Below, in pieces: positions 1,757 to 11,227 of a stretch of DNA of 11,227 bases. The notes below the pieces were generated by a model. The model was not told where the DNA came from and did no database searches. It saw only the letters and a list, made by a program, of their open reading frames with translations. Made by a program: the position numbers and the translations under genes. How positions within the stretch are numbered: position 1 is the first letter of the stretch; every line of letters starts with the position of its first letter. The stretch is from a virus. Lineage: Duplodnaviria > Heunggongvirae > Uroviricota > Caudoviricetes. The DNA lies in IMG/VR virus record IMGVR_UViG_2913157538_000006; one strand, 5' to 3'.

Positions 1757-1795
1757 TGATCTTACCCAGCAATAGTGGACACGCGGCTAAGTGAG
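1757..1795. repeat. IS3 left terminal inverted repeat
   Basis: TGATCTTACCCAGCAATAGTGGACACGCGGCTAAGTGAG matches the reverse complement of the right end at about 30 of 39 positions (aligned by eye). Confidence 0.8.
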
Positions 1796-1821
1796 TAAAC
1801 TCTCAGTCAGAGGTGACTCAC

Positions 1822-2121
1822 ATGACAAAAACAGTATCAACCAGTAAAAAACCCCGTAAACAGCATTCGCCTGAATTTCGCAGTGAAGCCCTGAAGCTTG
1901 CTGAACGCATCGGTGTTACTGCCGCAGCCCGTGAACTCAGCCTGTATGAATCACAACTCTACAACTGGCGCAGTAAACAGCAAAATCAGCAGACGTCTTC
2001 TGAACGTGAACTGGAGATGTCTACCGAGATTGCACGTCTCAAACGCCAGCTGGCAGAACGGGATGAAGAGCTGGCTATCCTCCAAAAGGCCGCGACATAC
2101 TTCGCGAAGCGCCTGAAATGA
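1822..2121 (+). CDS. insE: IS3 OrfA (transposase N-terminal, HTH DNA-binding part)
   Basis: ATG at 1822 is preceded by GAGGTG (1810-1815). Product is 99 aa ([32 protein letters not shown] ...) with a leucine-zipper-like C-terminus. The ORF track begins at an upstream GTG (1813); the ATG is the more likely start. Confidence 0.88.
2084..2088 (+). other. Candidate programmed -1 ribosomal frameshift site (A-AAG) for the OrfAB transposase
   Basis: In the orfA frame the codons read CAA AAG (2083-2088). The -1 frame is open from here into orfB. IS3-family frameshifting at A-AAG or A-AAA-AAG motifs is established knowledge; this exact site is inferred, not demonstrated. Confidence 0.5.
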
Positions 2122-2984
2122 AGTATGTCTTTATTGAAAAACATCAGGCTGAGTTCAGCATCAAAGCAATGTGCCGCGTGCTCCGGGTGGCCCGCAGCGG
2201 CTGGTATACGTGGTGTCAGCGGCGGACAAGGATAAGCACGCGTCAGCAGTTCCGCCAACACTGCGACAGCGTTGTCCTCGCGGCTTTTACCCGGTCAAAA
2301 CAGCGTTACGGTGCCCCACGCCTGACGGATGAACTGCGTGCTCAGGGTTACCCCTTTAACGTAAAAACCGTGGCGGCAAGCCTGCGCCGTCAGGGACTGA
2401 GGGCAAAGGCCTCCCGGAAGTTCAGCCCGGTCAGCTACCGCGCACACGGCCTGCCTGTGTCAGAAAATCTGTTGGAGCAGGATTTTTACGCCAGTGGCCC
2501 GAACCAGAAGTGGGCAGGAGACATCACGTACTTACGTACAGATGAAGGCTGGCTGTATCTGGCAGTGGTCATTGACCTGTGGTCACGTGCCGTTATTGGC
2601 TGGTCAATGTCGCCACGCATGACGGCGCAACTGGCCTGCGATGCCCTGCAGATGGCGCTGTGGCGGCGTAAGAGGCCCCGGAACGTTATCGTTCACACGG
2701 ACCGTGGAGGCCAGTACTGTTCAGCAGATTATCAGGCGCAACTGAAGCGGCATAATCTGCGTGGAAGTATGAGCGCAAAAGGTTGCTGCTACGATAATGC
2801 CTGCGTGGAAAGCTTCTTTCATTCGCTGAAAGTGGAATGTATCCATGGAGAACACTTTATCAGCCGGGAAATAATGCGGGCAACGGTGTTTAATTATATC
2901 GAATGTGATTACAATCGGTGGCGGCGGCACAGTTGGTGTGGCGGCCTCAGTCCGGAACAATTTGAAAACAAGAACCTCGCTTAG
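2118..2984 (+). CDS. insF: IS3 OrfB (transposase catalytic DDE domain; normally expressed as an OrfAB fusion)
   Basis: 288-aa ORF in the -1 frame relative to orfA, with ATGA overlap at 2118-2121. Contains an integrase-like catalytic core (WAGDITYL ... [10 protein letters not shown] ... [13 protein letters not shown]). Confidence 0.88.
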
Positions 2985-3014
2985 GCCTGTGTCCATATTA
3001 CGTGGGTAGGATCA
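2976..3014. repeat. IS3 right terminal inverted repeat
   Basis: Reverse complement TGATCCTACCCACGTAATATGGACACAGGCCTAAGCGAG pairs with the left end. Confidence 0.8.
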
Positions 3015-3847
3015 TTGAAGTCATATGAAGTGGAAATCGTTTTCATAAATGACGGCAGCAAAGACGCTACGGAGTCAATCATTAATGCTCTGGCTGTTTC
3101 AGATCCTCTAGTTGTTCCGCTGTCATTTACACGCAACTTTGGTAAAGAACCAGCATTGTTTGCAGGGTTAGACCATGCAACCGGGGATGCGATAATCCCA
3201 ATTGATGTTGACCTGCAAGACCCGATTGAGGTTATTCCTCATCTTATTGAAAAATGGCAAGCAGGTGCTGATATGGTTCTTGCTAAAAGATCTGACCGCT
3301 CAACTGATGGACGCCTGAAGCGAAAAACGGCTGAGTGGTTCTATAAGCTCCACAATAAAATAAGCAATCCTAAAATTGAAGAGAATGTTGGTGATTTCAG
3401 GCTGATGAGCCGTGATGTTGTCGAAAATATTAAACTTATGCCAGAACGAAACCTTTTCATGAAAGGTATTCTGAGCTGGGTAGGAGGAAAGACAGATATT
3501 GTTGAATACGTGCGAGCGGAAAGAATTGCTGGAGATACAAAATTTAATGGATGGAAACTTTGGAATTTAGCACTTGAGGGTATTACAAGCTTTTCCACAT
3601 TCCCTCTTCGCATCTGGACATACATAGGGTTAGTGGTAGCCAGTGTAGCATTTATTTATGGGGCGTGGATGATTTTAGATACTATCATATTTGGAAATGC
3701 TGTTAGGGGATATCCTTCACTACTTGTTTCAATACTGTTTTTAGGTGGAATTCAGATGATTGGAATAGGAGTATTAGGTGAATATATTGGACGCACATAC
3801 ATTGAAACCAAAAAACGCCCGAAATACATCATCAAGAGAGTCAAAAA

Positions 3848-5179
3848 ATGAATAAAGCAATAAAAGTATCATTGTATATATCTTTTGTTTTGATTATTTG
3901 CGCCTTATCTAAAAACATAATGATGTTAAATACATCTGATTTCGGAAGAGCCATTAAGCCATTAATTGAAGACATACCAGCATTTACATATGACTTACCT
4001 TTATTGTATAAATTGAAAGGTCATATTGATTCAATTGATAGCTATGAGTATATAAGTTCATATAGTTATATTTTGTATACATACGTCCTGTTTATTAGCA
4101 TTTTTACTGAATATCTTGATGCTAGGGTGTTATCGTTATTTCTAAAAGTAATATATATTTATTCATTATATGCGATATTTACTTCATATATAAAAACAGA
4201 AAGGTATGTAACTTTATTTACATTCTTTATTTTAGCTTTTCTTATGTGTTCTTCATCAACACTGTCAATGTTTGCATCATTCTATCAAGAGCAAATAGTT
4301 ATAATTTTCCTTCCATTTTTGGTGTATTCATTAACATGCAAAAACAATAAATCTATGCTTTTGCTATTTTTTTCGTTGCTAATAATATCTACTGCTAAAA
4401 ATCAATTTATATTAACCCCACTAATAGTGTATTCATATTATATTTTTTTTGATAGACACAAACTAATTATTAAATCTGTAATATGCGTGGTGTGCTTGCT
4501 TGCGTCAATATTTGCAATATCTTATTCAAAAGGTGTTGTTGAATTAAATAAGTACCATGCAACATACTTCGGTAGTTATCTTTATATGAAAAACAACGGG
4601 TATAAAATGCCATCGTATGTTGATGATAAGTGTGTTGGGTTAGATGCCTGGGGTAATAAATTCGACATATCATTTGGCGCAACCCCAACAGAAGTTGGAA
4701 CGGAATGTTTCGAATCTCATAAAGATGAAACGTTTTCGAATGCACTCTTTTTATTGGTTAGCAAACCAAGCACCATCTTCAAACTTCCATTTGATGATGG
4801 TGTGATGTCTCAGTATAAAGAAAATTATTTCCATGTATATAAAAAACTACACGTAATATATGGAGAATCAAACATACTAACGACTATTACTAACATAAAA
4901 GACAATATATTTAAAAACATTAGATTTATATCATTGTTATTATTTTTTATTGCTTCTATTTTTATTAGAAATAATAAAATAAAGGCATCTTTATTTGTAG
5001 TATCTCTTTTTGGAATATCTCAATTTTATGTGTCATTTTTCGGGGAAGGATATAGAGATTTAAGCAAGCATTTATTTGGAATGTATTTTTCGTTCGACCT
5101 TTGCTTATACATAACAGTCGTTTTTTTAATTTATAAAATAATTCAAAGAAATCAAGACAATAGCGATGTAAAGCACTAA
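3848..5179 (+). CDS. yfdI: Serotype-specific O-antigen glucosyltransferase (GtrS-type polytopic membrane protein)
   Basis: 443-aa strongly hydrophobic, AT-rich ORF with multiple membrane spans and a larger soluble segment. Third gene of a gtr cassette, with ATGA overlap to gtrB at 3848-3851. The symbol is the recalled K-12 locus name. Confidence 0.82.
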
Positions 5180-5187
5180 GTTTAAAT

Positions 5188-5209
5188 TGCGCGCCAATCA
5201 TGGCGCGCA
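5188..5209. terminator. GC-rich hairpin immediately after gtrS (possible bidirectional terminator)
   Basis: TGCGCGCC (5188-5195), 6-nt loop, GGCGCGCA (5202-5209): a perfect 8-bp stem 9 nt past the gtrS stop. There is no clear T-run on the plus strand; a short A/T-rich run follows on the minus strand. Confidence 0.35.
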
Positions 5210-5477
5210 CAAGCTATAATACCAACCTAATTTCTCCTCCTCTTAGAGTGACTATATCTCCTGATAGAATTGCGGTATTGACTATCAAATGCCCTGATTC
5301 GTTGTTTATTGTAATATCTCCTCTATCTGCAGACGATAACTTAAATGCATCATTGCCCACAACAAACCCCCTCCAGAACCAAGTGCTGATATTATCATCA
5401 ACAGTGATAGATACATATACTAACTGATTATCGTTATAAGTGATTCCTGTCTTATACTTAACATAAGGACTTCCACT

Positions 5478-5822
5478 TTGATTCTCGATAGACACATAAC
5501 ATCCAGGGGTTATGTTTGTATGCGTCCCGCGACTATCGCCCCATTAACGCCATACGATAAATGGGATGGTGAGAAATGGGTGACGGATACCGAGGCACAG
5601 CATAGCGTCGCAGTAGATGCAGCAGAAGCACAGCGCCAGTCGCTGATTGATACTGCAATGGCTTCCATTAGTCTGATTCAACTGAAATTACAGGCTGGGC
5701 GGAAGCTGATGCAGGCAGAGACCTCCCGACTTAACACTGTGCTGGATTACATTGACGCGGTGACGGCAACAGATACCAGCACCGCGCCGGATGTCATCTG
5801 GCCTGAACTGCCGGAGGAGTAG
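5478..5822 (+). pseudogene. tfaS: Tail fibre assembly protein fragment (C-terminal part only)
   Basis: The C-terminal roughly 90 aa (... PLTPYDKWDGEKW ... LDYIDAVTATDTSTAPDVIWPELPEE) resemble the C-terminal half of phage Tfa/gpU-type proteins and parallel the C-terminus of the convergent yfdK product (DTSSAPDIEWPTPP). The expected N-terminal motif (MxYxYSATTN) is absent. Confidence 0.72.
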
Positions 5823-6234
5823 GCCATTCAATATCTGGCGCACTGGAAGTATCGACCAGCTCCAGTGCGTCCAGATAATCCAGCCACAAATTATATTGCG
5901 CCAGTTCCTCACCTTTCAGACGACCAATAGCCGCTTTACCAGCCCATTGTTTACTGTTCATATAATCGTTGGCCTGATTAATCAATTGCTGCTTTTTCAG
6001 TTCGGCTGCAGCAATCTGTTCCTCATGTGTTGGTGGTGGAATTTCAGACCATGCAGGAAAACCATTTTCTCCAGCGATACGGATTTTTCCTTTCGGCGGT
6101 AATCCGGAAAACTCAATATACACTTGCTCATCAACTTCAACAGCATCATCTGGCCATGAGCCAGCTTGCGTGTAATCCTCTTTCATCTCCAAGGGATAGA
6201 AAGAGTTTGTAGTCGCGGAATATATGTAATTCAT
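5794..6234 (-). CDS. yfdK: Tail fibre assembly protein (Tfa/gpU family)
   Basis: 146 aa, beginning MNYIYSATTNSFYPLEMKEDYTQAGSWPDDAVEV, with GGAG about 7 nt upstream of the ATG at 6234. Lies directly downstream of the tail-fibre fragment on the same strand. Confidence 0.88.
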   Translation of the reverse strand: MNYIYSATTNSFYPLEMKEDYTQAGSWPDDAVEVDEQVYIEFSGLPPKGKIRIAGENGFPAWSEIPPPTHEEQIAAAELKKQQLINQANDYMNSKQWAGKAAIGRLKGEELAQYNLWLDYLDALELVDTSSAPDIEWPTPPAVQAR

Positions 6235-6260
6235 TTTTCACTCCATAAAGTTAAAAGAAA

Positions 6261-6779
6261 TTAACACCCTAATGCGAAAAATGAAGCACCGATACCGGGT
6301 ACGCCTGCTCTGGAAATAAATTTCACCGGGTCCTGGTTATAACCGGCACAAGCTATATAGCCAACATTTGCACTGCCGGGAGTGTAATCCTGAGTCGCAA
6401 ATACCCGCAGACATCTATTCGGAAATGCAATCGGAAAATAGGTTACTGTGTCCTGAGACGTCAGCGGAACATCAATTGGCCCCCATTGAATAATTAAACC
6501 GGATGGCAATTTTTGATATCCAGGAACTGAAGCAGAAAGCATAAAACTACCCATATCAGGTATCTGATTCGCCCCTGTCCCTACATTTCTTTTAGCCGCT
6601 TCTCCCAAACCAAGGTTTTCGAGAGCCTTTTGCACCGTGCCGTCCAATTTGATATCGCCAAACGGATTCTTGCGGCTTAACAGCAGCGCACGAAGCGCGG
6701 TAAGCAGCTGGTCATGCCGCCCCTTCTCCAGGCTGGCACCGGAGGCCTCCACAACGCTGCAAAGCTCCTCCTGCAACAT
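6261..6779 (-). pseudogene. yfdL: Tail fibre protein C-terminal (receptor-binding) fragment
   Basis: 172 aa from an internal Met. The same frame is open further upstream to 6983 with no plausible RBS at 6779, so this is the 3' end of a once larger gene. It is followed by a tfa gene, as in Mu S-U, P2 H-G and e14 stf-tfa pairs. Confidence 0.68.
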
Positions 6780-6828
6780 GTCAAAGTAGTCATCATCCAG
6801 ATCGGTGGCAGGCGTGCCGGTCTGGGGG

Positions 6829-7104
6829 TTACCACGGGTACGGGGGATTACCAAAGGCAGCACCTTTAAGCTCCGCAAGACGTTCTGACCAGTCATGCGC
6901 CAGCGCGTTGTCTTCCGCAGTGTAATACGCGGCACATTTGGCGTTATCACCATCAGTAAACAGATCCAGAACAAACGGGCCAAACAGGGTGTTAATTCCC
7001 CAGAAAATGTTGTCCGGCGTGCGCCACTGATCGCCCACTTCCTTCAGTTCATGGGCTGGTTTGTTCCGCAGCTCCACCAGCGCCTGGCAATATTTATTAC
7101 TCAT
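6829..7104 (-). pseudogene. yfdM: Phage Dam-type N6-adenine DNA methyltransferase, N-terminal fragment truncated just after the NPPY motif
   Basis: Product ends ... [12 protein letters not shown] then stop. NPPY is the catalytic motif IV of N6-adenine methyltransferases, which normally sits mid-protein. Start taken at the Met whose ATG overlaps the yfdN stop (TAATG at 7102-7106); the ORF track extends to an upstream start at 7137. Confidence 0.72.
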
Positions 7105-7598
7105 TAAGCCCCCACGTAATTCCCTGAGAGATACCACTCTTCACCTGATGCAGCCCGCTTACTGCTTTTCCGTAAACACCGTTCACGACGCGCCAGAAAA
7201 TTGTTTCGTTCTGGCTGGGAGTGGCTTTCACGGAATGCCGCCATCCACACCGTTGCAGCACGACGGTATAAGCCCCTGGACTCCAGTTCTTCCGCCTGGC
7301 GGGTCAGGCACAAAATCACCCGCGGGTCGTTAGTGCCGACATAGAAATTGCGCACAGGTCTGGTTTCACGAACTGGTTGTGGTTCCGGATCCTGCGCTCT
7401 CTCAGTCAGGCGCGGGAAATGTCTGTGTGTATCTCCTTCACAACGGTGAGCCACACGCCCACTCTGACGTAACTTGCTTGCTGACTGCAGAACGCGCTGC
7501 CGTGAGTAACCTGCAAAAGCATCCGCAATGTCTCCGGAAGTACAGCCCGGATGGGCTTCAATGAATTTCTGAACGTCATTCAAAAGACTCATGCTCAC
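7104..7598 (-). CDS. yfdN: Hypothetical prophage protein with a PerC-like C-terminal region
   Basis: 164-aa ORF. The segment AEELESRGLYRRAATVWMAAFRESHSQPERNNFLARRERCL resembles the GLWRRAA..W core of PerC/Pch-type regulators as I recall it; this is unverified. Start is ambiguous: GTG at 7598 (AGGA 8 nt upstream) or ATG at 7592. Confidence 0.75.
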   Translation of the reverse strand: MSMSLLNDVQKFIEAHPGCTSGDIADAFAGYSRQRVLQSASKLRQSGRVAHRCEGDTHRHFPRLTERAQDPEPQPVRETRPVRNFYVGTNDPRVILCLTRQAEELESRGLYRRAATVWMAAFRESHSQPERNNFLARRERCLRKSSKRAASGEEWYLSGNYVGA

Positions 7599-7963
7599 CC
7601 CCTGAATCCTGCCGGGATCTGGCTGTAGTCCACATTGTCGTAACTGGCTTTGAAGTACGGGTCTTCGCGTTTTTCTGTGTACGTGCTGACGGACGGCGAT
7701 AAGCGCAGGGAAAGCTCATCCCATTTTTCCCGCAGCTTCGACGGGCTGAGCACGTTACGGCACCAGAACGGATCGCGGCTGACGCGGCTGTACATCTCGC
7801 AGATTTGTTTGTGAGTACGACCATCCTGCACACACATCAGGCGAATTTCGTTTGCCCAGGCTGTCCAGTTCGGTTCTTTGGGACGAACCACCTCGCCGTC
7901 ACATTCGGCGGCCTGCTCGTACAGGGCGATGATTTTTTTCCAGAGCCACTGTGCGCAGGTCAA
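7595..7963 (-). pseudogene. yfdO: Replication initiator (lambda O-like) C-terminal fragment; frame open upstream through the iteron array
   Basis: 122 codons from a TTG at 7963. The same frame has no stop between 8455 and 7598 and no ATG/GTG/TTG upstream of 7963. The O-like assignment is recalled annotation supported by the embedded iterons, not by a search. Confidence 0.65.
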
Positions 7964-8087
7964 ATCATCCTGCGTTCCCCACTGGCGCTTTTTAGGGCTG
8001 AATACAACCGCATCAGGATGGCGAGTTAAAAAATCCTGTTCATCCGTCTGCGTGTCCGGTTGCGAAGCGTCCGGACGAGAAGGTTTT

Positions 8088-8240
8088 TTATCTGACGGAT
8101 CATGTTTTGATTTTACTGACGGATCCCCGCCAGATTCTGACGGGTGAAAACCCGATTTTTTGCCAGATTTCGACGCATCAAATTTTGACGGGTCAGATTT
8201 TGATGCGTCAGATTTTGACGGGTCAGAGTCTGACAGTTGA
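8088..8240. repeat. Iteron-like direct repeat array (about 8 copies, 15-bp period)
   Basis: Five tandem 15-mers at 8166-8240 (GATTTCGACGCATCA, AATTTTGACGGGTCA, GATTTTGATGCGTCA, GATTTTGACGGGTCA, GAGTCTGACAGTTGA), preceded by three more copies with TGACGG cores at 8093, 8117 and 8138. Confidence 0.75.
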
Positions 8241-8320
8241 GAAAATGCCGCTGCCTGAAGCTTCGCAACGTTAAGCTGATAAACATTCGACGCATTGCGG
8301 TTATGATGAGGAGCAGCAAA

Positions 8321-8683
8321 ATGGCTAGCGAACGCAGTACTGATGTGCAGGCATTTATCGGGGAGCTGGACGGCGGCGTATTTGAAACCAAAATCGGCGC
8401 AGTTCTCAGTGAAGTCGCTTCCGGTGTGATGAACACGAAAACCAAAGGTAAGGTCTCACTCAACCTGGAAATCGAACCATTTGATGAGAACCGTCTGAAA
8501 ATCAAACACAAACTCTCATATGTTCGCCCGACTAACCGTGGGAAAATTTCCGAAGAAGACACCACCGAAACGCCGATGTATGTCAATCGCGGTGGTCGCC
8601 TGACTATTCTGCAGGAAGACCAGGGACAATTACTGACTCTTGCCGGTGAGCCTGACGGAAAACTCCGCGCAGCAGGTCATTAA
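8321..8683 (+). CDS. yfdP: Hypothetical prophage protein
   Basis: 120 aa from the ATG at 8321, with GAGGAG 8 nt upstream. The ORF track starts at an upstream alternative start (8237) that lacks an RBS. No recognisable motif. Confidence 0.75.
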   Translation: MASERSTDVQAFIGELDGGVFETKIGAVLSEVASGVMNTKTKGKVSLNLEIEPFDENRLKIKHKLSYVRPTNRGKISEEDTTETPMYVNRGGRLTILQEDQGQLLTLAGEPDGKLRAAGH

Positions 8684-8748
8684 TATCATTCTTAATTAAC
8701 TAATTATTTATCTCATCACTGAATATCTTAATATAGTGAGGACTTATT

Positions 8749-9573
8749 ATGTCTCAGAACTTAGACGCAACCGCAATTAATCAAATCCATGCCCTTATTT
8801 CTGCTCAGGGTGTTAATGAAATTATCAGTAAGATTGGTGCCGATGCTGTGGCATTGCCTGAGAATTTCCGCATTCATGATCTGGAAAAATTTAATTTAAA
8901 TCGCTTCCGTTTCCGTGGTGCGCTTTCCACTGCCAGCATCGATGACTTTACCCGTTATTCTAAAGATCTTGCAGATGAAGGCACCCGCTGCTTTATCGAT
9001 GCTGATAATATGCGTGCCGTCAGTGTGCTTAACCTGGGTACTATTGATGAACCAGGTCACGCAGATAACACCGCCACTCTCAAACTGAAAAAGACAGCAC
9101 CGTTCTCTGCCCTGTTGTCTGTTAACGGCGAGCGTAACTCCCAGAAATCACTGGCAGAATGGATTGAAGACTGGGCCGACTACCTTGTGGGCTTTGATGC
9201 TAATGGTGACGCCATTCAGGCAACAAAAGCGGCTGCGGCAATCCGTAAAATCACGATTGAAGCAAACCAGACCGCTGATTTTGAAGATAATGACTTCAGC
9301 GGCAAACGCTCCCTGATGGAATCTGTCGAAGCGAAGACCAAAGACATTATGCCAGTGGCATTTGAATTTAAATGCGTTCCGTTTGAAGGTCTGAAAGAAC
9401 GTCCGTTTAAATTACGCCTCAGCATTATCACTGGCGATCGTCCTGTACTGGTTCTGCGCATTATTCAGCTGGAAGCGGTGCAGGAAGATATGGCTAACGA
9501 ATTTCGTGATCTGCTTGTTGAGAAATTCAAAGACAGCAAAGTAGAAACCTTTATTGGTACTTTCACCGCCTGA
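8749..9573 (+). CDS. yfdQ: Hypothetical prophage protein (YfdQ-like; family name recalled as DUF2303, unverified)
   Basis: 274-aa ORF with good coding character and GTGAGGA about 7 nt upstream of the ATG. No catalytic motif recognised. Confidence 0.85.
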
Positions 9574-9585
9574 TTTCATTACTGC

Positions 9586-9607
9586 AAATGCCCCTGCGGG
9601 GGCATTT
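9586..9607. terminator. Stem-loop downstream of yfdQ (weak terminator or RNA stability element)
   Basis: AAATGCCCC (9586-9594), short loop, GGGGCATTT (9599-9607): a 9-bp perfect stem 13 nt after the yfdQ stop. No convincing U-tract follows. Confidence 0.3.
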
Positions 9608-9700
9608 ATGGAAACGTAATTAACTCAATAATCACCGGATGGTGAGGGCTTCCTTTTACCCAAACTCAGCGCGGTGCAGCGCATATACGTGGAGAACAAA

Positions 9701-10237
9701 ATGTCATTTATTAAAACTTTTTCCGGGAAGCATTTTTATTATGACAAGATAAATAAAGACGACATCGTGATTAACGATATCGCGGTTTCCCTTTCAAATA
9801 TCTGCCGCTTTGCCGGTCATCTTTCTCACTTCTACAGTGTCGCCCAACATGCGGTGCTTTGCAGCCAGCTGGTGCCGCAGGAATTTGCTTTTGAAGCATT
9901 AATGCATGATGCAACAGAAGCGTATTGCCAGGACATCCCCGCACCACTGAAACGCCTTCTTCCTGACTATAAACGGATGGAAGAAAAAATAGATGCAGTA
10001 ATCCGTGAGAAATACGGGTTACCTCCTGTTATGAGCACGCCAGTGAAATATGCCGATCTCATTATGCTGGCAACCGAACGCCGTGATCTCGGGCTTGATG
10101 ATGGCTCTTTCTGGCCTGTACTGGAAGGCATCCCGGCAACAGAGATGTTCAACGTGATTCCACTGGCACCGGGTCATGCCTACGGGATGTTTATGGAACG
10201 TTTTAACGATTTATCGGAGTTACGCAAATGCGCATGA
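9701..10237 (+). CDS. yfdR: HD-domain phosphohydrolase (YfbR-like 5'-deoxynucleotidase family)
   Basis: 178 aa from the ATG at 9701 (GGAGA at 9691-9695). HD-domain signature residues are present: H in SVAQHAVL, HD in ALMHDATEAY, and a later D in YADLIMLATERRD. The ORF track starts 9 codons upstream at 9674. Confidence 0.85.
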   Translation: MSFIKTFSGKHFYYDKINKDDIVINDIAVSLSNICRFAGHLSHFYSVAQHAVLCSQLVPQEFAFEALMHDATEAYCQDIPAPLKRLLPDYKRMEEKIDAVIREKYGLPPVMSTPVKYADLIMLATERRDLGLDDGSFWPVLEGIPATEMFNVIPLAPGHAYGMFMERFNDLSELRKCA

Positions 10238-10590
10238 ATGTTTTCGAAATGGAAGGGTTTCTTCGCGGGAAATGTGTACCGCGAGATCTGAAAGTGAACG
10301 AAACAAATGCTGAGTACCTGGTACGTAAATTCGACGCGCTTGAAGCTAAATGTGCGGCACTGGAAAACAAAATAATACCAGTGTCAGCTGAACTGCCACC
10401 AGCAAATGAAAGTGTTCTGTTATTTGATGCTAACGGAGAAGGCTGGCTGATTGGCTGGCGTTCTCTCTGGTACACCTGGGGACAAAAAGAAACCGGAGAA
10501 TGGCAGTGGACATTTCAGGTTGGGGACCTTGAAAACGTCAATATCACTCACTGGGCAGTAATGCCAAAAGCACCGGAGGCTGGAGCATAA
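10228..10590 (+). CDS. yfdS: Hypothetical prophage protein (C-terminal motif reminiscent of DUF551-type phage proteins)
   Basis: 120 aa with GGAG 8 nt upstream. Overlaps the yfdR 3' end by 10 nt. Ends ... NITHWAVMPKAPEAGA; the domain assignment is recalled, not searched. Confidence 0.82.
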   Translation: MRMNVFEMEGFLRGKCVPRDLKVNETNAEYLVRKFDALEAKCAALENKIIPVSAELPPANESVLLFDANGEGWLIGWRSLWYTWGQKETGEWQWTFQVGDLENVNITHWAVMPKAPEAGA

Positions 10591-10895
10591 TGACCACATT
10601 TACCAATAAAGAACTGATTAAAGAAATCAAAGAACGAATCAGCAGCCTAGAGGTTCGAGACGATATTGAGCGCCGTGCTTATGAAATCGCACTCGTATCT
10701 CTGGAAGTAGAGCCAGATGAACGCGAAGCCTATGAATTATTCATGGAAAAGCGTTTCGGTGACTTAGTAGATCGTCGGAGAGCAAAAAACGGCGATAACG
10801 AATACATGGCATGGGATATGACTCTCGGTTGGATCATCTGGCAGCAACGAGCTGGTATCCATTTTTCAACAATGTCACAACAAGAGGTGAAATAA
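10590..10895 (+). CDS. yfdT: Hypothetical prophage protein
   Basis: 101 aa. Start overlaps the yfdS stop (TAATG at 10588-10592) with GGAGG/GGAG just upstream, indicating translational coupling. Confidence 0.82.
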   Translation: MTTFTNKELIKEIKERISSLEVRDDIERRAYEIALVSLEVEPDEREAYELFMEKRFGDLVDRRRAKNGDNEYMAWDMTLGWIIWQQRAGIHFSTMSQQEVK

Positions 10896-10991
10896 TAGAG
10901 CCATACAGCCTCACACTCGATGAGGCCTGTCAGTTTCTTAAAATATCCTGATCTACCATCGCCGTCATAGAGCGTATTTTTATTACCTGAT

Positions 10992-11007
10992 TTGCAGGTT
11001 CGATTCC
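10992..11007 (+). other. tRNA T-arm-like 16-mer (TTGCAGGTTCGATTCC), not a complete tRNA
   Basis: Contains the canonical T-loop GGTTCGATTCC preceded by TTGCA. The following bases (CTATTCGG) cannot form the complementary T-stem. It matches my recollection of the tRNA-Arg (argW) T-arm up to the base before the 3' terminal segment. Confidence 0.45.
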
Positions 11008-11026
11008 CTATTCGGAGATAGCACTC

Positions 11027-11227
11027 ATGCAACACGAACTACAGCCTGATTCACTGGTTGATTTGAAATTCATCATGGCTGATACTGGCTTTGGTAAAAC
11101 CTTCATCTATGACCGGATTAAGTCAGGCGACCTGCCAAAAGCCAAAGTTATCCACGGGCGAGCAAGATGGTTATATCGTGACCATTGTGAATTCAAAAAT
11201 AAGCTCTTAAGCCGCGCCAATGGGTAA
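11027..11227 (+). CDS. torI: Excisionase / recombination directionality factor (Tor inhibition protein)
   Basis: 66 aa (MQHELQPDSLVDLKFIMADTGFGKTFIYDRIKSGDLPKAKVIHGRARWLYRDHCEFKNKLLSRANG), a small basic winged-helix protein typical of Xis-type factors, with GGAGA about 9 nt upstream. Sits at the end of the element opposite the integrase. Confidence 0.88.
   Translation: MQHELQPDSLVDLKFIMADTGFGKTFIYDRIKSGDLPKAKVIHGRARWLYRDHCEFKNKLLSRANG

Follow-up and report, generated by a model that had tools for sequence, protein, structure and literature searches.

A dam/tail-fibre junction as the probable scar of a large internal deletion in the cryptic prophage CPS-53 of Escherichia coli K-12

The prophage CPS-53 (KplE1) sits at argW, spans 10.2 kb and contains 16 ORFs; it is defective, can still be excised (PMC2951348) and has no repressor (Panis et al. 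2010, PMC2951348). In Escherichia coli K-12, its GtrABS module is functional (PMC11990801). In a preprint, the T1-like phage SW1 was reported to require yfdM for its propagation, with phenotypes upon deletion and upon overexpression; the authors proposed that YfdM is a Dam methylase and described '91 aa' shared with an Stx2-phage Dam (10.1101/413146). For comparison, the SfV-type group, comprising SfV (also SfII), vB_EcoM-689R6 (hereafter 689R6) and the J31 prophage, supplies models of an intact ancestor. That CPS-53 carries a scar at yfdM is already known, as RefSeq marks a truncation of this gene that ends at position 6838. Our analysis indicates that a temperate phage of the SfV type, resident at argW in the K-12 lineage, very probably underwent a large internal deletion of which this site is the scar, and that this deletion of approximately 24–25 kb is the largest of several losses behind the present CPS-53.

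The window, which denotes the whole stretch of 11,227 bases that we analysed, corresponds to CPS-53 of E. coli K-12; it begins where intS starts and closes where torI ends, two genes that lie at opposite ends of the element. It is 100% identical to CPS-53 of MG1655 over positions 1–1756 and 3014–11227; between 1756 and 3014 lies a copy of IS3, which together with its 3-bp target duplication measures 1,261 bp and is inserted approximately 29 codons into yfdH/gtrB. This IS3-in-gtrB state is common to 55 complete genomes, including C600, RV308, GM4792 and NEB Turbo. The joint between dam and the fibre gene is present in 359 of 5,426 complete E. coli genomes; all sampled rows were 100% identical, and the majority were named laboratory strains of K-12. 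The type-specific gene yfdI has a similarly narrow spread (362 genomes), and a scan of species-representative genomes found identical YfdI in only two other E. coli chromosomes, one of which (L008) equals the window except for IS3. The joint is confined to those 359 complete genomes, which look K-12-like.

To the right of the joint, the Dam frame occupies a minus-strand ORF at 6829–7137 that ends GNPPY-Pro-Trp-stop. Alignment, Pfam and RefSeq agree that 6838–7104 (minus strand) is yfdM, comprising codons 1–89 of the 217 codons of a phage Dam (N6-adenine methyltransferase) gene. The nine bases at 6829–6837 (minus strand) are, by sequence reading and alignment, fibre-derived DNA read in the dam frame, and they end the 91-amino-acid (aa) YfdM with Pro, Trp and a stop codon (6829–6831). 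The preliminary description of this DNA had the frame stopping one codon after NPPY; truncation at NPPY stands, but two sense codons precede the stop. NPPY itself, at 6838–6849, makes up residues 86–89, and the joint falls within the Tyr codon of this catalytic (D/N)PPY motif, leaving the motif present. Directly upstream of dam on the right arm lies the PerC-family gene yfdN (7104–7598, minus strand), as in SfV (orf40).

The ORF matches the Pfam Dam family (PF05869) with 83 bits (cut-off 28.1), and YfdM covers profile positions 3–69 of 169, compared with 3–167 for the full-length SfV Dam (217 aa). Residues 1–89 are 100% identical to the same residues of the Dam proteins of SfV, J31 and 689R6, each of 217 aa, which run 128 residues past NPPY; the C-terminal half is missing from YfdM, as the preliminary description had held. 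The stub retains dam nucleotides 1–267, that is 41% of the codons, and the alignment shows dozens of invariant positions among those lost after residue 89. A search with full-length SfV Dam returned 1,435 homologues, of which the close ones have 217 aa or more, with clusters that reach 3,007 members; the matches to the 91-aa stub were all short or partial proteins. At the K-12 locus, RefSeq lists yfdM (6838–7104) as a 'phage N-6-adenine-methyltransferase' pseudogene 'missing C-terminus'. Because 128 of 217 residues are gone, dozens of invariant positions among them, it is very unlikely, judged from sequence, that YfdM would act as a methyltransferase. An AlphaFold2 model of the full-length Dam, built on 22 close homologues, had a pLDDT of 38.9, too low for use, and neither sequence nor profile searches of the PDB gave a significant homologue of full-length Dam.

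To the left of the joint lies yfdL (6261–6840, minus strand), a tail-fibre gene that lacks its first 62–65 nt, as determined from protein alignments, Pfam and DNA homology extending to 6840. Twenty-one codons (MHRIDTKTAQKDKFGAGKNGF) and the native start have been lost; 192 codons and the stop remain, approximately 90% of a gene of 213–226 codons. The preliminary description had correctly seen tail-fibre sequence here, but had taken it for a 3′ end only. The product aligns from fibre residue 22 onwards with the fibres of NCTC9041 (220 aa), SfV (orf21, 216 aa) and the IMG/VR contig L011 (226 aa). The frame at 6261–6983 contains the complete Gp53-like_C domain (PF21882; 66 bits, profile positions 1–84 of 84), and instead of being a complete gene unrelated to fibres it proves to be a tail-fibre gene deprived of its native start.

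A start has been annotated for this frame within the neighbouring gene. RefSeq lists a CDS at 6261–6896 as a 'gp53-like domain-containing protein' of 211 aa (WP_042405267.1), and the identical protein is found in public databases. Its ATG at 6894–6896 lies inside dam DNA in another frame: annotation and alignment identify 6841–6896 (minus strand) as out-of-frame dam sequence supplying the ATG and the 19 N-terminal residues, which have no counterpart in any fibre aligned. Upstream of this ATG, reading of the sequence found no Shine–Dalgarno-like element and a scan found no promoter-like site. The annotated protein is thus a chimeric ORF, and since its first 19 residues come from dam DNA in the wrong frame, we advise that WP_042405267.1 be treated as a pseudogene.

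A search with region 6400–7300 of 5,426 complete E. coli genomes and of 50,697 phage records served to fix the position of the joint. Dam-side homology begins at 6838 in every match listed, and the fibre-side matches that reach the joint, which are to SfV-type fibre genes, stop at 6840; the same switch in homology recurs in over 3,000 records of E. coli and in 55 of phages. Aligned base by base and without gaps to three dam and three fibre references, the window follows the fibre sequence through ...CCACGGGTA and the dam sequence from GTACGGGGGATTACC... onwards. The deletion junction therefore comprises a 3-bp microhomology, GTA, at 6838–6840 (no strand assigned) that is present in both parent genes and is their sole overlap; on the coding strand it reads TAC, the Tyr codon of NPPY. 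The comparison with these six references revealed no filler DNA. The preliminary description, which called for alignment with full-length Dam and fibre genes and for a microhomology search, had placed the junction at 6779–6835. Both analyses bear out a real junction, although its true site is three bases to the right of that interval. The fibre coding sequence, said to begin within 50 bp, does lack its own start, but no gap separates the two genes.

One base next to the joint, C at 6841, departs from the three dam references used. The exact 30-mer from 6838 is present in 643 E. coli records, intact dam genes among them, and GTAC is read in 20 of the 80 IMG/VR dam contigs examined. On this evidence, the C is a natural dam allele, and no untemplated base is needed to explain the joint. 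A random-sequence calculation gives a chance of approximately 0.05 for a microhomology of at least 3 bp at an arbitrary joint, and the GTA accordingly lends only slight support to a microhomology-dependent mechanism.

The profile of G+C composition has no step across the joint, so homology alone reveals it. No insertion-sequence end, att core (CTGCAGGGGACACCAT) or invertase site was found at the joint, an Rfam scan of the window returned no match, and, around the joint, a promoter scan was empty and a terminator scan gave nothing above chance. A near-direct repeat of pattern GGGGG(A)TTACCA does straddle it (6824–6853, plus strand), with GGGGGTTACCA on the fibre side at 6824–6834 and GGGGGATTACCA on the dam side at 6842–6853, and its score was reached by only 0.55% of 20,000 synthetic random joints. 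We rejected this repeat as the crossover substrate, as both copies are retained and are offset by 18–19 nt from the joint; the simple deletion model does not account for its presence.

Could the two frames be natural genes, a short methyltransferase-like gene overlapping a complete, independently started one? Database entries would favour this, with RefSeq presenting the 211-aa ORF as an ordinary protein and UniProt naming its neighbour 'Putative methyltransferase YfdM'. The alignments of Dam and of the fibres refute it, as do the partial coverage of PF05869 and the minimum of 217 aa among Dam homologues, and the N terminus of the 211-aa ORF is dam DNA matching no fibre. Moreover, all 80 viral (IMG/VR) contigs with this dam sequence read through the site as intact dam and none of the 80 has the K-12 joint. 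We regard the chance that the site is not a scar as practically nil.

The deletion reading receives its main support from intact relatives, in which the two breakpoints are far apart. They are separated by 23,926 bp in SfV, counted through cos, and by 25,006 bp in 689R6, with both arms in the same order and orientation. The interval between them in these two phages begins with the rest of dam and early genes (LexA-like, RusA, KilA-N, DUF968 and Q), continues through lysis genes (holin, lysin and Rz/Rz1) and packaging and head genes (an HNH gene, terminase, portal, protease, capsid and head–tail genes), and ends with tail genes (sheath, tube, tape measure and Mu-like baseplate genes). All lysis and morphogenesis genes of SfV and 689R6 fall within it, in agreement with the earlier proposal that a large deletion removed the lysis, packaging, head and tail genes. 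The length and content of the deleted DNA are estimated from these relatives, which are 88–98% identical. Among species-representative genomes and IMG/VR, no intact argW prophage with both K-12-type gtrS and this dam allele was recovered.

The gene content between the breakpoints in SfV and 689R6 marks the ancestor as SfV-like: its early region was lambdoid, its head was of the HK97 type and its contractile tail resembled that of Mu. In the late genes it was neither lambda-like nor P2-like; the preliminary description had assumed a lambdoid or P2-like gene order, and what survives of that argument is the wide separation of the breakpoints. The left arm of the K-12 element has been seen attached to tail genes in nature. 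Contig L011 has a K-12-type gtrABS arm with 99% identical YfdI and matches window positions 3014–5856 at 98.9%; it continues through a full-length fibre gene of 226 aa into genes for baseplate wedge, hub and tape measure, the last marking the extent of our examination.

These arrangements also bear on whether the joint could have arisen by illegitimate recombination between two elements, a donor of the fibre and tfa cassette and a lambdoid prophage contributing the dam side. The donor might, for instance, have been a superinfecting phage or a second prophage in the same host. P2-like and SfV-like prophages share fibre/tfa cassettes, which are mosaic, and identity to the references differs between the sides of the joint (92–95% on the fibre side and 96–98% on the dam side), as a hybrid might display. 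However, a single genome, that of SfV, has the two arms correctly ordered and oriented, the K-12-type gtr–YodE–tfaS arm of L011 runs on without a break into a fibre gene and Mu-like tail genes, and no duplicated or foreign material flanks the joint. We consider a hybrid origin highly improbable.

The best explanation therefore remains deletion within one prophage: the two flanks are distant in intact relatives, homology switches abruptly between them and they share a short microhomology. As far as sequence comparison reaches, the alignments establish the breakpoint, its microhomology and the loss relative to intact relatives. Illegitimate, homology-independent joining would have used the GTA to fuse dam nucleotide 267, in the Tyr codon of NPPY, to approximately nucleotide 63 of the tail-fibre gene, with deletion of approximately 24–25 kb from the 3′ 59% of dam through the Mu-like baseplate genes. 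The joint is out of frame: the dam frame encodes 89 Dam residues followed by Pro-Trp, and the fibre frame, left without its native start, borrows an ATG and 19 codons from dam in the 211-aa ORF. A microhomology-level illegitimate deletion within one SfV-like prophage is the most likely course; that it was a single event, and that it proceeded by a mechanism such as replication slippage or end joining, we infer.

CPS-53 has other scars. At 8302–8303 (no strand assigned), base-by-base comparison with four references places another junction left by an internal deletion, here with 2 bp of overlap. It accounts for the loss of 3.4–3.6 kb, comprising the 5′ end of a replication gene, the cro-like and cI-like (immunity) genes and their neighbours, and in RefSeq the gene next to it has pseudogene status, 'missing N-terminus'. 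This joint shows the same style of decay as that at 6838–6840. The 24–25 kb deletion is enough to make the element defective, as the preliminary description had supposed when it ascribed the cryptic state to it, but it is not the only scar.

Several smaller deletions, of which the present joint records only the last, could also have produced this arrangement. The element has at least two further independent scars (8302/8303 and the truncated gene tfaS at 5532), the SfV-like prophage of NCTC9041 carries a different, smaller deletion, and earlier scars within the interval would have been wiped out by the last one. Since the tfaS truncation is also present in L011, whose tail genes are intact, it predates the big deletion. 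Against such erosion, no late-gene remnant lies at the joint between 6840 and 6838, and parsimony favours a single event. Stepwise loss seems to us unlikely, and it would be a variant of the favoured explanation, with the nature of the joint the same.

The two products of the joint, the 91-aa stub and the fibre frame, are best read as pseudogene remnants, and they are presumably without function. The yfdM phenotypes in the preprint (10.1101/413146) argue against the stub being completely inert; even so, Dam activity as an explanation for SW1 is hard to square with a protein ending at NPPY, and a YfdM phenotype, if real, calls for a non-catalytic explanation. It is doubtful that the scar products have roles, with YfdM acting non-catalytically and the fibre cassette serving as a recombination reservoir. 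If they did, YfdM may bind DNA or a partner protein and so enable propagation of SW1 (10.1101/413146), and the fibre gene, its chaperone and the crossover site would form a reservoir for host-range change by incoming phages.

The site is otherwise a routine scar of prophage decay. Our analysis adds the base-level joint, its microhomology, an SfV-type reconstruction of the lost DNA and two cautions on annotation; a limited literature search found no statement of the base-level breakpoint, the microhomology or an SfV-based reconstruction. For a much-used laboratory genome, the history is thereby fixed: CPS-53 is the remnant of an SfV-like serotype-converting myovirus with at least three clean internal losses, which took approximately 24 kb of late genes, an immunity-region segment of approximately 3.5 kb and the invertase side of a fibre switch.

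The fibre switch invites comparison with the Din-family invertible tail-fibre segments, which include the Mu G segment with Gin, the P1 C segment with Cin and the e14 P segment with Pin. As in those segments, CPS-53 has a crossover site for a Din-family (Pin/Gin/Cin-type) invertase, TTCTCCCAAACCAAGGTTTTCGAGAG, at 6600–6625 (plus strand), on the boundary between constant and variable parts of the fibre gene, followed by convergent tfa genes. Homology to other fibres changes near 6599, and the identical site occurs inside the fibre genes of SfV and of the comparison sequences L005 and L002; in L005, an inverted partner site (TTCTCCCAAACCAACGTTTATGAAAA) adjoins pinE. Intact relatives with an invertase share the same crossover site and convergent tfa arrangement. 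The first tfa gene, yfdK (5794–6234, minus strand), lies directly downstream of yfdL and is, by annotation and a full-length Pfam Caudo_TAP match of 135 bits, an intact tail-fibre assembly chaperone. The second, tfaS (5532–5822, plus strand), retains the C-terminal ~96 codons of a tail-fibre assembly gene in the opposite orientation (Caudo_TAP positions 34–131 only). It belonged to the former invertible segment and is a RefSeq pseudogene 'missing N-terminus'; its homology in other genomes starts at 5532, and an intact counterpart of 200 aa adjoins an invertase in L007. Unlike Din-family segments, CPS-53 lacks an invertase, a partner site, an alternative fibre end and half of the second tfa gene: the crossover site is present in a single copy, and neither a partner site nor an invertase gene was found within the window. 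With the invertase, partner site and alternative end gone, the fibre segment is frozen.

Among SfV-like prophages, that of NCTC9041 offers a parallel, as it is likewise decayed and has lost its packaging, head and tail genes. Its lysis and early regions survive, as do the fibre gene and both tfa genes, and at its scar a truncated gene for an HNH endonuclease abuts what is left of the gene immediately upstream of the fibre gene. In contrast to CPS-53, its fibre gene is intact (220 aa), dam is absent, and pinE and both crossover sites are kept.

With SfV, 689R6 and the J31 prophage, CPS-53 has in common its gene order and close DNA homology in both arms, covering gtrA/gtrB, tfa, the short fibre gene (orf21 in SfV), dam and the PerC-like gene (orf40); SfV orf32–orf28 correspond to CPS-53 yfdP–yfdT. 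Mu-like baseplate genes, absent from the window, are present in SfV, 689R6 and L011. The SfV-like relatives keep the 24–25 kb stretch from dam to the fibre gene and the immunity region, both of which CPS-53 lacks, and their type-specific gtr genes differ from that of CPS-53. Integration sites also differ: J31 lies beside icd, the 689R6 integrase is near icd and the NCTC9041 prophage is at tRNA-Thr, whereas CPS-53 is at argW. Finally, int and xis are adjacent in SfV, whereas their CPS-53 counterparts, intS and torI, stand at the two ends of the element.

CPS-53 carries a second clean deletion junction in its immunity region, at window 8302–8303, which was recognized by comparison with related elements and has a 2-bp overlap. 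Relative to vB_EcoM-689R6 (hereafter 689R6) and the J31 and NCTC9041 prophages, 3.4–3.6 kb is missing at this point: the replication gene has lost its 5′ portion, leaving yfdO as its remnant, and DUF4222, ymfL, and the cro-like and cI-like genes are gone. KplE1, the same element, has been described as having no repressor (PMC2951348), an absence that this deletion explains.

At the main joint between yfdM and yfdL, a near-direct repeat, GGGGGTTACCA / GGGGGATTACCA (window 6824–6853), places one copy on each side, and only 0.55% of random synthetic joints have repeat similarity this high. This repeat was not where the crossover took place. The chimeric open reading frame on the minus strand (window 6264–6896) is listed in RefSeq as an ordinary protein, WP_042405267.1 (‘MULTISPECIES: gp53-like domain-containing protein’), and is found on 659 contigs, with its first 19 residues being an out-of-frame reading of dam DNA. 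A further database match, P0075, is a 91-residue YfdM-like protein ending in ...NFLYLW that differs from YfdM by many Ala-to-Val, Pro-to-Leu and Thr-to-Ile substitutions. Rather than a natural variant, it seems to be K-12 YfdM derived from reads that were C-to-T-converted or heavily mutated.

The tfaS region (window 5180–5822) records an older event. tfaS is the C-terminal half of a tail-fibre assembly gene in the opposite orientation, and similarity to other genomes starts at 5532; the sequence to its left (5180–5531), which holds the small annotated gene yodE (5214–5360), is seen only alongside K-12-type yfdI. Because the tail-intact IMG/VR contig L011 shares the truncation, the truncation predates the 24 kb deletion. 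Within the glucosylation arm, an IS3 element (window 1757–3013; target duplication 1754–1756 / 3014–3016) interrupts yfdH/gtrB approximately 29 codons into the gene. It is expected to abolish the function of the GtrABS O-antigen glucosylation module, which is functional in BW25113 (PMC11990801). MG1655 lacks the insertion; 55 complete genomes carry it, C600, RV308, GM4792 and NEB Turbo among them.

The SfV-like prophage of E. coli NCTC9041, which adjoins a tRNA-Thr gene, has a separate deletion scar (19690–20630 of its record), at which a truncated HNH endonuclease gene meets the remnant of a gene 5′ of an intact 220-residue fibre gene; packaging, head and tail genes are lost, and the fibre/tfa/pinE switch is retained. 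A Din-family invertase crossover site, TTCTCCCAAACCAAGGTTTTCGAGAG (window 6600–6625), lies within yfdL where its constant and variable parts meet, and SfV, 689R6 and NCTC9041 have the identical site in their fibre genes. Whereas the NCTC9041 prophage keeps the invertase gene, pinE, with the partner site next to it, CPS-53 has this one site, with neither partner site nor invertase.
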